From the NCBI GenBank assembly GCA_046153645.1, contig JBJXGI010000010.1:1-39824 (forward strand): DNA of 39,824 nucleotides, written 5' to 3'. Position 1 is the first letter of the stretch; every line of letters starts with the position of its first letter. Position numbers: made by a program. The DNA comes from Elusimicrobiota bacterium (GTDB lineage: Bacteria > Elusimicrobiota > Elusimicrobia > F11). This document shows positions 1-3,000 of the stretch, piece by piece.

Positions 1-3000
1 CGGAAATAATGTCCATTCTCTCTCCTTCTTCGGTTTTGAAATGATATTGCCCAGGTCGGATTGCGCCAATGGTTTGGCGTTTTCCATCTTTAGAAAGAAT
101 TGTATGACTCACCACGCCACCATCAAAATAAATATTCGCTTTTAATTTAATCGATACCTCATATAATTTTATTGGTAGTTCACCCATATTATCTCCTTAA
201 TACTTTTCACTAATAGACATTTACCCTGAAATAAGTGTTTCCGCTGTTTTTAAAATATCGAGGAACTCTTCAGATGATTTTGCTTTGCTTAGTTTTTTAA
301 AGAGTGATTCATTTGAAGCCAAAAGCGCAATACGTGAGAGAATCTTAAGCTGTTGAATGGGAATAGATGACGACGTTAAAATTAAGAAAATAAGTTTGAT
401 CGGTTGTTTATCGTGAGCCGCCGCAAAAGAAATTGGTTTTTGACATTGGCCAACCAGAATAATAGGTCGATCAAGTGAAATTCTGGCATGAGGCAGAGCC
501 ACTCCTTTGGCCACGGGTGTGGGTATTTTCATTTCTCTTTCTTCTAGTGCTTTTGTGATGTAAGCCTTACTAATTGCAGGGTGAATTTTTTGCAATCGAT
601 CAACGAGAATTTTTACTGCTTCTGATAATGACTCTGTTTTTATCCCGACCTCAATATATTGTGGAGTTAAAAAGCTGTGGATGGACCACGCTTGGGGAAT
701 ATCATATTCATCATGAATCTCTCCAATCAATTCTTCTAAGATGTCTTCCATTGTTACAAGTCCAATAATTTTTTCATTGGAATCTTTTACCAACGCCAGA
801 TGACGGCCTTGTTGAGTCATAAGTTTAAAGATGTTTTTAACCAAATCATTTTCATGGGCCCAAAAAACGGGACGGAGGAATGAAGATAAATCAACAGGGT
901 TTGGGTTCATCCCGAAATCTTTGATATGAACATATCCCACGGCATGAGTTAAATCTGGATTTCCAACAGGGAATCGGGAAAGGCGCGAAGTTTCAATGAT
1001 GGCCTTATTTTCTGACCAATTTTTCTGCAACGACAAAAATTGAATTTTTTCTTTTGGAATCATGGCTTCTCGAACTTTCATGTCAGCAAAATCAAATAGG
1101 TTTTCAATAATGAAAAGTTGATCCAGCGGAATAAGCCCTTTTTCTTGGGATGCGTTTAAAATAATACGAACTTCTTCTTCTGTAAAAACCTGTTCATGCT
1201 CTCCTGTAGGGGGAAACCCCAGAAGTTTCGAGATAAACACAAAACTTTTCGTCATAACCCAAATAGGAAATCGAAAAACTTTTGAAAAAATTTCAAAAGG
1301 AATGGCCACCAACAGTGCCACTCTTTCGGCTTGGTGTATGGCAATAGATCGAGGGACAAGTTCTGCAAAAACAATTTGAAAATACGTGATTAGAATAAAA
1401 GCGAAAATGGTGTTAATCCCGCGGCTATAAGGTATAAGCCATTCAGGTAAGGGCAGAATTTTTTGTATTGACCCTGCTACCAAGGGTTCTCCTATCCATC
1501 CAAGCCCCAGTGTGCAAATAGTAATTCCAAGCTGAATGGCGGATAAATATTTATCTAGGTTTTTGAGCATGTGAAATACTAGCTGTGGACGGCGGTGTCC
1601 TTGAGACATCATAAGTTCAAGGCGCGCTGGTTGGACTCTCACTAAAGAAAACTCCGTCAAAACAAAAAAGACATTGGCGACAAGTAGAATGAGAGCTACG
1701 ATAAGTTCAAAAGTCATAGATTGATGTTAGTACAGTCGAAGCAGGTTGTTCAGAAAAAATTACGATTGAGGAACCAATTCTTTATTTTTTCTATTGGTAA
1801 ACCAACTCACAAAAAGCCAAACAACAGGCACTATAACCAATAGATAAGTTAAAAGCTGACCATAAAAACCTTCAGGACCAAAAGGTTCTGTGGCATCATG
1901 CCAGGCTTGACTTAAACCTAAAACCCCAGCTTCAGTGAGTTCGTGAAAAGCATAAAGAATGAGTTGGATAACAAAGATAAACAAGAAGACCGCCGTGACT
2001 TGAAGAAACCGAGCAAGATTAATTTTGTGGCCATGTTTAGCCCAAAACCAAGCAATACTGGCTGCTGCTAAAATTCCAAGCGCGCATCCAAGAACAAGTT
2101 TCCATGCTTGCATTTGGAAAATGAGTGCATTGAGTAAGAGAGCTGTTTCCATTCCTTCTCTTGTAATCATAAGTGTTGTGAACCCAAAAACACCTAACCA
2201 AGCAGACAGGCCTGTTTTTTCAGTAGAATTTTTTAACCCTTTTTCAATATCTCGTTTAATAAAACGAGCTGTTTTCCACATGTGAATAGTCATCGTTCCT
2301 ACTAAAATAGCAGCCACCAAGGCCAAAAGACCTTCCCATAACGCTTGGTTAGAGGCTCGGTTCAAAAGAACGCCCGCCACAATACTTAAGAAAATAGAGA
2401 ACACAATCCCCGCTTTCACCGCTGGAATTAAACGAATAAGATTGGCTTTTTTAAGATAAGAAAGACTAATAGCAATAATAAGGAAAGATTCTAGGCCTTC
2501 TCGAAAAGTGATCATGAATGATTGAAACATAAAATATACTCCTTAATCTTGTTGAAATTATATTTCATCTTAATAAAAACTTCAATTAAAAAAATGATTG
2601 ATTAACAACAACCGTGAGAAGAAGGGTCTTTGGAAACACAGCGTATTTGTTGATAAAAAAAAGCTCCAGTAAACGCGCCTAAAATAGGGGCCAGCCAATA
2701 AATATAGTGCCCATTCCAATGGCCAGAAATAAGAGCCGGCCCAAAAGAACGGGCTGGGTTCATGGAAGCGCCTGAAATAGGTCCAGCAAAGATGGCCAGT
2801 AACGATACCGTGCCACCAATGGCAACACCGGCCATGACGCCTTCTGCCCTGTGATCAGTGGCCACACCCATAATAACGAACATAAGTAATAACGTTGAGA
2901 AATATTCCAACCAAAACGCTTGGGCCTGAGAAAATGCGGGAACAGTGGCCCCTAAATTCGAAAAAGTGGGGTTAAAAATAAATTTAATTGTTAATGATGC

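Follow-up and report, generated by a model that had tools for sequence, protein, structure and literature searches.

Gene and domain architecture

The window, by which we mean the whole stretch of 39,824 nucleotides that was analysed, carries near its first end a gene for a 498-residue protein (Table 1). Pfam places a CNNM domain at residues 6-197 (E 1.8e-44), a CBS domain at 282-331 and PTS_EIIA_2 (PF00359) at 349-490 (E 2.6e-25; 89.5 bits against a cut-off of 27). No CorC_HlyC match was found in the protein with Pfam, hence the typical C-terminus of a prokaryotic CorB is absent, and the order CNNM, CBS, EIIA is the one described in an earlier survey of this genome. A DUF21/CNNM domain followed by a helical bundle and a CBS pair identifies the protein as a member of the CNNM/CorB family. 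The AlphaFold model of the full fusion (pLDDT 92.0, pTM 0.70) has MtCorB as its top Foldseek match, and the tail matches the IIA-Ntr structures 1a6j, 2a0j (TM by target 0.87, rmsd 2.0) and 3urr.

Table 1. Positions in the window of the fusion gene and of the features of its product.
Feature	Position	Strand	Basis and remarks
Fusion gene (P0001)	221..1717	-	498-residue CNNM-CBS-EIIA protein; ORF call, Pfam, model
CNNM/DUF21 membrane domain (PF01595), residues 6-197	1127..1702	-	Pfam; alignment to MtCorB and TpCorC
MpfA-type ion site within the CNNM domain			N15, V19, Q62, I65, T66, A118, E119, P122
Glu119 of the pi-helical turn, equivalent to MtCorB Glu111, a Mg2+ ligand	1361..1363	-	144/144 fused cores; PMC8242095, in part
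Acidic helical bundle, residues ~178-212	1082..1186	-	Model, alignment; helix 2 with clade-specific L198, R200 (Gln here), L201, E205
CBS pair, residues ~213-333	719..1081	-	Mg-ATP motifs S247-R248 and G319-x-x-T322-x-E324-D325; R248 equivalent to MtCorB R235 (7m1u alignment)
PTS EIIA domain, Fru/Mtl/Ntr fold, residues 349-490	248..673	-	PF00359; Foldseek; replaces CorC_HlyC
His410, predicted phospho-acceptor, equivalent to PtsN His73	488..490	-	163/164 fused domains
Arg394, phosphate-binding arginine, equivalent to PtsN Arg57	536..538	-	163/164 fused domains; PMC1201152, in part
Gln456, replacing the second histidine (PtsN His120, IIA-Mtl His111)	350..352	-	164 fused domains

A chance read-through or assembly artefact was rejected on the strength of 105 full-length homologues with identities down to 32%. 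An EIIA tail is also present in 43 of 146 further 50%-cluster representatives, and the GC content is equal in the two halves of the gene (0.387 and 0.385).

An FTR1/EfeU-like iron permease gene (window 1760-2530, minus strand) lies 42 bases upstream of the fusion gene, and a PpnP gene truncated where the contig ends (window 2-187, minus strand) lies 33 bases downstream. Neither gave a tblastn match as a neighbour in 20 loci (17 of them fusion loci; flanks of 1.5 kb, one of 5 kb), and a conserved operon was rejected because these neighbours are not kept at other fusion loci. Further upstream on the same strand is an arsenic-detoxification set of arsR, arsC and an aquaporin-type channel (window 2602-4033), and the plus strand (window 5959-14157) encodes a 2732-residue protein with two methyltransferase domains, a weak arginase-family match and internal repeats seen by eye. 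A promoter and terminator scan was near chance (16 versus 10.3 and 7 versus 4.5), no RNA holder was listed, and a single-protein locus scan returned only generic CNNMs.

Distribution of the fusion

Among the best 120 of 8000 scored candidates the query and 105 others carry both PF01595 and PF00359; among these 120 matches two are partial (N-terminal fragments; PF00359 with PF00571) and 12 have CorC_HlyC. The survey's finding that the best homologues combine both domains around an invariant His410 is thus upheld for rows P0001-P0106 (the query and 105 of the 119 others listed), where the histidine is present in 106 of 106. Its count of six out of 11 genomes of the same family (F11) was also reproduced, five of them with a full-length fusion and one (G009) with a fusion split over two contigs.

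A full-length fusion was found in 10 of 29 other genomes of the same class. In the phylum sample it occurs in 24 of the 69 genomes of the window's class (one covering profile positions 3-427 only) and in none of the 82 outside it, with a single match to the profile in 15 of the 24. Named homologues, among the matches listed, are mostly from Elusimicrobia, with some from Planctomycetes and Spirochaetales. The architecture also occurs in two Atlas clusters (91 and 63 members), whose commonest known phylum is Planctomycetota.

One genome (G021) has two fusions (contig C77, locus L011, and contig C223, locus L183), in the second of which the histidine is kept while Arg412 is replaced by Ala and Gln456 by Tyr. 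Genomes of the family that lack the fusion have instead tandem genes for tail-less CNNMs of 337-365 residues (G001:C19, G004:C51 and G005:C87), the products of which are perhaps heterodimeric. Tail-less CNNMs of G014, G016 and G024 were rejected as cases of EIIA loss, being placed outside the fused clade described below.

The EIIA tail

The tail has the fold, a score above cut-off, and the acceptor histidine and arginine of the EIIA Fru/Mtl/Ntr family (PF00359). It falls well short of PtsN (EIIA-Ntr) proper, with 43 bits against a cut-off of 221 and 42.6 against 138.7, and Gln456 in place of His120. With NCBIfam the fructose IIA model scored slightly higher than PtsN (51 versus 43 bits), all scores lying below the cut-offs. 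Furthermore, the tail is only 24% identical to the host PtsN, and of the 18 fused domains in a 47-row EIIA tree, 17 fall with EIIAs tethered to KdpD and with some free-standing ones, not with the host PtsN (SH-aLRT 91, unstarred). The survey's term ‘PtsN-like’ therefore holds for the fold but not for the family, given the NCBIfam scores and the position apart from host PtsN, and a recent capture of the host ptsN was rejected on the identity and the separate grouping. A search for stand-alone close relatives of the tail gave 61 candidates, none significant.

His410 aligns with His73 of E. coli PtsN, which supports the predicted phospho-acceptor histidine noted in the survey. Across a wider set of 164 fused domains His410 and Arg394 are each present in 163, Glu395 in 162 and Arg412 in 159; the set is limited to domains that span 100 profile positions or more, fragments below this length having been dropped, and some of its rows are one protein from two sources. 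The hydrophobic positions expected to contact HPr (V402, V406, L457, L460 and A464) are likewise kept.

At the second-histidine position the 164 domains have Gln (140), His (20), Tyr (3) or Arg (1). The second histidine of IIA-Mtl (His111) has been proposed to serve onward transfer to EIIB (PMC1201152, in part), and glutamine at this position is consistent with an end-point phosphate acceptor. The position of PtsN Gly61, which lies in the NPr contact region (PMC1201152, in part), has Leu, Phe, Met, Ala and Val as its five commonest states in the 164 domains, and Ser in FruA IIA domains; judged from the alignment, a bulky residue here may hinder HPr docking. One fused protein (P0149) is without the acceptor histidine and another (P0172) has a degenerate tail.

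The transporter half

The core resembles MtCorB (7m1t) and TpCorC (7cff, 7cfi) in fold, helical bundle, Mg-ATP motifs and the pi-helix Glu-x-x-Pro of TM3, of which the proline, P122, is present in 143 of 144 fused cores. The CBS pair carries both parts of the Mg-ATP site, Ser-Arg and Gly-x-x-Thr-x-Glu-Asp, with R248 in 141, G319 in 144 and E324 in 143 of the 144 cores. In the query Leu246 stands at the adenine-stacking aromatic position, which is Phe, Tyr or His in 79 of 106.

The ion site of the solved proteins is, however, not kept. Their Mg2+ ligands (PMC8242095 and PMC7875539, each in part), which in MtCorB are Ser21, Ser25, Ser71, Gly110 and Glu111, map to Asn15, Val19, Ile65, Ala118 and Glu119 (alignment offset 6, and the TpCorC alignment too). 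Two of the three polar ligands of the Ser/Ser/Ser-or-Asn type, Ser25 and Ser71 (Asn90), are hence hydrophobic in the fusion. The fused cores agree at N15 (142 of 144), V19 (129), Q62 (144) and T66 (140), and the same ion site is seen in 98 longer relatives that are not fused, so that on the alignments the altered site is a subfamily signature and not decay. In TtCorB liposomes Ser/Ser/Asn-to-Ala mutants transport more and pi-helix Glu and Pro mutants less (PMC8242095, in part), a result with which the TpCorC cell assay disagrees on the second Ser (PMC7875539 and PMC8242095, in part).

Two Staphylococcus loci, L123 and L130, match nine of 10 residue marks of MpfA (Table 1 of PMC5122736, in part) at offset 0 and are taken as MpfA orthologues. 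Their ion site reads T-V-Q-I-T-G-E and that of the fusions mostly N-V-Q-I/V-T-G/A-E. The N/T-x-x-F-V, Q-x-G-I-T, G-E site and a joint branch with these orthologues assign the fusion to the MpfA type. MpfA (SA0657 of Staphylococcus aureus; CNNM/CorB, TC 1.A.112) and its Bacillus counterpart also share with the fusion the CNNM and CBS core, including the essential CBS glycine (MpfA G326, G319 here), whereas the orthologue at L130 ends in CorC_HlyC and the fusion in EIIA. Loss of MpfA renders S. aureus sensitive to ~10 mM Mg2+ (PMC5122736, in part). Both orthologue genes (L123:527-2491 and L130:2601-4559) lie near a fructose PTS IIABC gene (4977-6320/6362), probably by coincidence.

We built a FastTree of 139 CNNM cores over 343 columns. 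It took in each complete fused representative, each short representative and 19 loci, with P0001-P0106 sampled at every fifth row and the long non-fused representatives at every second. The 60 fused rows form one clade (SH-like 0.947, a value that this method can overstate) with no long non-EIIA protein inside it; it also holds three short proteins, apparently cut off or frameshifted. The clade is nested in the branch (0.996) that holds the MpfA orthologues; PaeA and E. coli CorB fall elsewhere. One fusion event would be the simple reading of this tree. Mg2+ is a plausible cargo because the MpfA orthologues share the fusion's ion site, and not because of the site in the solved CorB/CorC structures.

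Phosphorelay and Mg2+ genes of the genome

Contig C10 holds an operon of ptsN, hprK, rapZ, EIIA-Man, HPr and EI; the survey had placed EI, HPr, HprK and PtsN here, correctly, and RapZ and EIIA-Man can be added. HPr has His15 and Ser46, and EI has the TSH motif. The stand-alone EIIA-Man gene (L023:11537-11935, on C10 of G000) lies between rapZ and HPr, with no EIIB, EIIC or EIID match in the genome. Searches with eight permease, EIIB and EIIA-Glc families were all negative in this 99.7% complete genome, in line with the permease-free relay without EIIB that had been described, and no sugar PTS enzyme II with cognate EIIB and EIIC was matched. The PTS of this genome is therefore regulatory. All 41 relatives have EI and HPr, whether or not they carry the fusion; the relay thus does not track the fusion and their co-occurrence is uninformative.

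The fusion is the only CNNM of the genome, which has an MgtE importer and no match to CorA. No CorC_HlyC domain was found in the 41 genomes of the class searched. That the fusion is wired directly to the phosphorelay, as the survey had proposed, is an inference.

A gated Mg2+ exporter as the preferred reading

We think it slightly better than an even chance that the fusion is a homodimeric MpfA-branch CNNM/CorB Mg2+ exporter carrying its own HPr-phosphorylated switch, by analogy a tethered form of the PtsN control of YcgO and KdpD. It would export Mg2+, probably by cation antiport, and His410 would be phosphorylated from PEP by way of EI and His15 of HPr. The tail would read the phosphorylation level of the relay, as set by PEP supply and by HprK action on HPr Ser46, because no EIIB is present to take the phosphate. 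When unphosphorylated, the tail would rest on the helical bundle or the CBS pair and hold export down; phosphorylation would free it, and Mg2+ would exit when carbon flux stalls and freed Mg2+ accumulates. That phosphorylation releases export is a guess made by analogy with YcgO, hardly better than a coin toss, and LacS is reported to have the opposite sign of control.

In E. coli, K+ efflux through YcgO is blocked by unphosphorylated PtsN, which attaches to the CorC domain of this transporter by way of His73; a phosphomimic abolishes the binding, and release turns efflux on (PMC11808508 and bioRxiv 10.64898/2026.08.14.744764, each in part). KdpD is a known PtsN target (PMC9239096, in part), and some relatives have an EIIA tethered to it within kdp operons. 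The PtsN-YcgO (CvrA) system thus has a Fru/Mtl/Ntr-fold EIIA whose histidine phosphorylation controls a cation exporter via a CorC domain; however, PtsN is there a separate protein that docks on the CorC domain of a CPA1 K+/H+ antiporter, whereas the fusion has a tethered EIIA and no CorC. Given that PtsN docks on CorC and that a CNNM has swapped CorC for EIIA, ordinary CorC-tailed CorB/MpfA proteins may themselves be targets of PtsN or other EIIAs.

Fused cores, unlike non-fused ones, conserve L198, R200, L201, E205 and W234, although the query itself has Gln200; these residues form a candidate docking patch, a pattern that clade history alone could explain. A pTM of 0.82 for the cytosolic fragment, modelled with no control, is a weak hint of fixed packing, and covariation for the EIIA-core interface gave noise (effective depth 68-116, top pairs scattered). 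Deletion of CorC left ATP binding of MtCorB unchanged (PMC8242095, in part), hence tails may matter little.

For regulation of the LacS kind, a predicted acceptor site and a donor HPr are both present in the genome. LacS of Streptococcus thermophilus is a sugar antiporter with EIIA-Glc, whose fold is unrelated to that of Fru/Mtl/Ntr EIIAs, in contrast to the fusion, a predicted inorganic-ion transporter with an EIIA of the latter fold. LacS is a non-PTS transporter with a fused tail phosphorylated by HPr, as predicted here, and a 2023 review names it as the only transporter in bacteria to be regulated through direct phosphorylation (PMC10710835). If our reading is true, the fusion would be the second such case, for an inorganic ion and with a different EIIA fold, and would link the PTS directly to Mg2+ homeostasis. 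It also bears on the open question of the role of the C-terminal tail in CNNMs, and a single histidine substitution would offer a clean switch for structural study of CNNM gating.

Alternative explanations

The same Mg2+ exporter could carry a tail that is unphosphorylated in the cell and acts as a structural or ligand-binding cap, either with its Arg/His/Arg pocket binding an anion (phosphate or sugar phosphate) or with the tail docked on the core or another protein. Sulfate is bound at the equivalent Arg and His in IIA-Ntr crystals (PMC1201152, in part). Since PtsN also docks through His73 at the YcgO interface (bioRxiv 10.64898/2026.08.14.744764, in part), conservation of the histidine need not mean phosphorylation, and both the bulky residue at the Gly61 position and the protein without the histidine would suit a cap. 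We nevertheless regard it as rather unlikely, as proteins 28-60% identical have retained the histidine, the two arginines and the hydrophobic patch facing HPr as a set, and as E. coli HPr/NPr phosphorylates Neisseria IIA-Ntr, in which an Arg likewise stands two positions beyond the His, when that protein is expressed in E. coli (PMC1201152, in part).

That a PTS-gated CNNM moves a cargo other than Mg2+, be it a polyamine, as with PaeA (YtfL), or another divalent cation, seems distinctly improbable. The canonical Ser/Ser/Ser(Asn) site is missing, Gln62 is common to the fusion and the E. coli polyamine exporter, itself of the CNNM family, and PaeA is the top NCBIfam model, at 138.8 bits against a cut-off of 500. 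PaeA, however, is 22% identical, has the site S-S-Q-L-N-A-D with Asp for Glu119 and lies outside the branch, whereas MpfA orthologues have the fusion's ion site, and the genome, which has an MgtE importer, encodes no other CNNM. A signal in the reverse direction would have the Mg-ATP-driven CBS rearrangement expose or hide His410, making the fusion a Mg2+- and ATP-controlled phosphate sink or source for HPr that tunes PtsN, EIIA-Man and their targets. CNNM cytosolic domains do rearrange widely upon Mg-ATP binding (PMC8242095, in part), one HPr serves three EIIA domains with no permease, and in the KdpD-EIIA proteins of relatives EIIA occupies the usual place of the output kinase. Yet there are probably too few copies of a membrane transporter to drain the relay, Gln for the second His fits an end-point acceptor, and the kdp loci still have a separate kinase subunit; we consider this reading very improbable. 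In a two-way coupler, HPr would gate Mg2+ export by phosphorylating His410, and the Mg-ATP state of the CBS pair would in turn set access to that residue. We hold this to be distinctly improbable; if true, a CNNM transporter would act as a sensor of magnesium and energy in a permease-free PTS.

Precedents and other tethered EIIA domains

EIIA domains fused to other non-PTS transporters are reportedly covered in the surveys of Barabote and Saier from 2005 and of Deutscher et al. from 2014. Automatic annotation (JGI names, Atlas clusters) already names the CNNM-EIIA architecture, and our literature search, most subscription papers being outside its scope, found no published description of it. 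The fusion is real, conserved and apparently unstudied, its novelty lying in the combination of known parts with clear precedents.

In relatives we also observed KdpD-EIIA proteins (L184:658-3108, L185:675-3101, L186:580-3117 and L187:678-3176; context in L198, L199 and L200). They consist of KdpD-Usp-DUF4118-GAF followed by an EIIA with intact His and Arg, have no kinase match, and their genes follow kdpABC. In all three loci read, kdpA is preceded by genes for a KdpE-type regulator and for a separate kinase of the DUF4118-(GAF)-HisKA-HATPase type. One literature search found no published description of these proteins, which look like a split KdpD with a tethered EIIA. Together with them the fusion, if it is a two-way coupler, would define a group of cation-homeostasis proteins that carry tethered EIIA switches. 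Relatives also have HTH_17-EIIA fusions (L188, L189 and L190), a type familiar from earlier PTS surveys.
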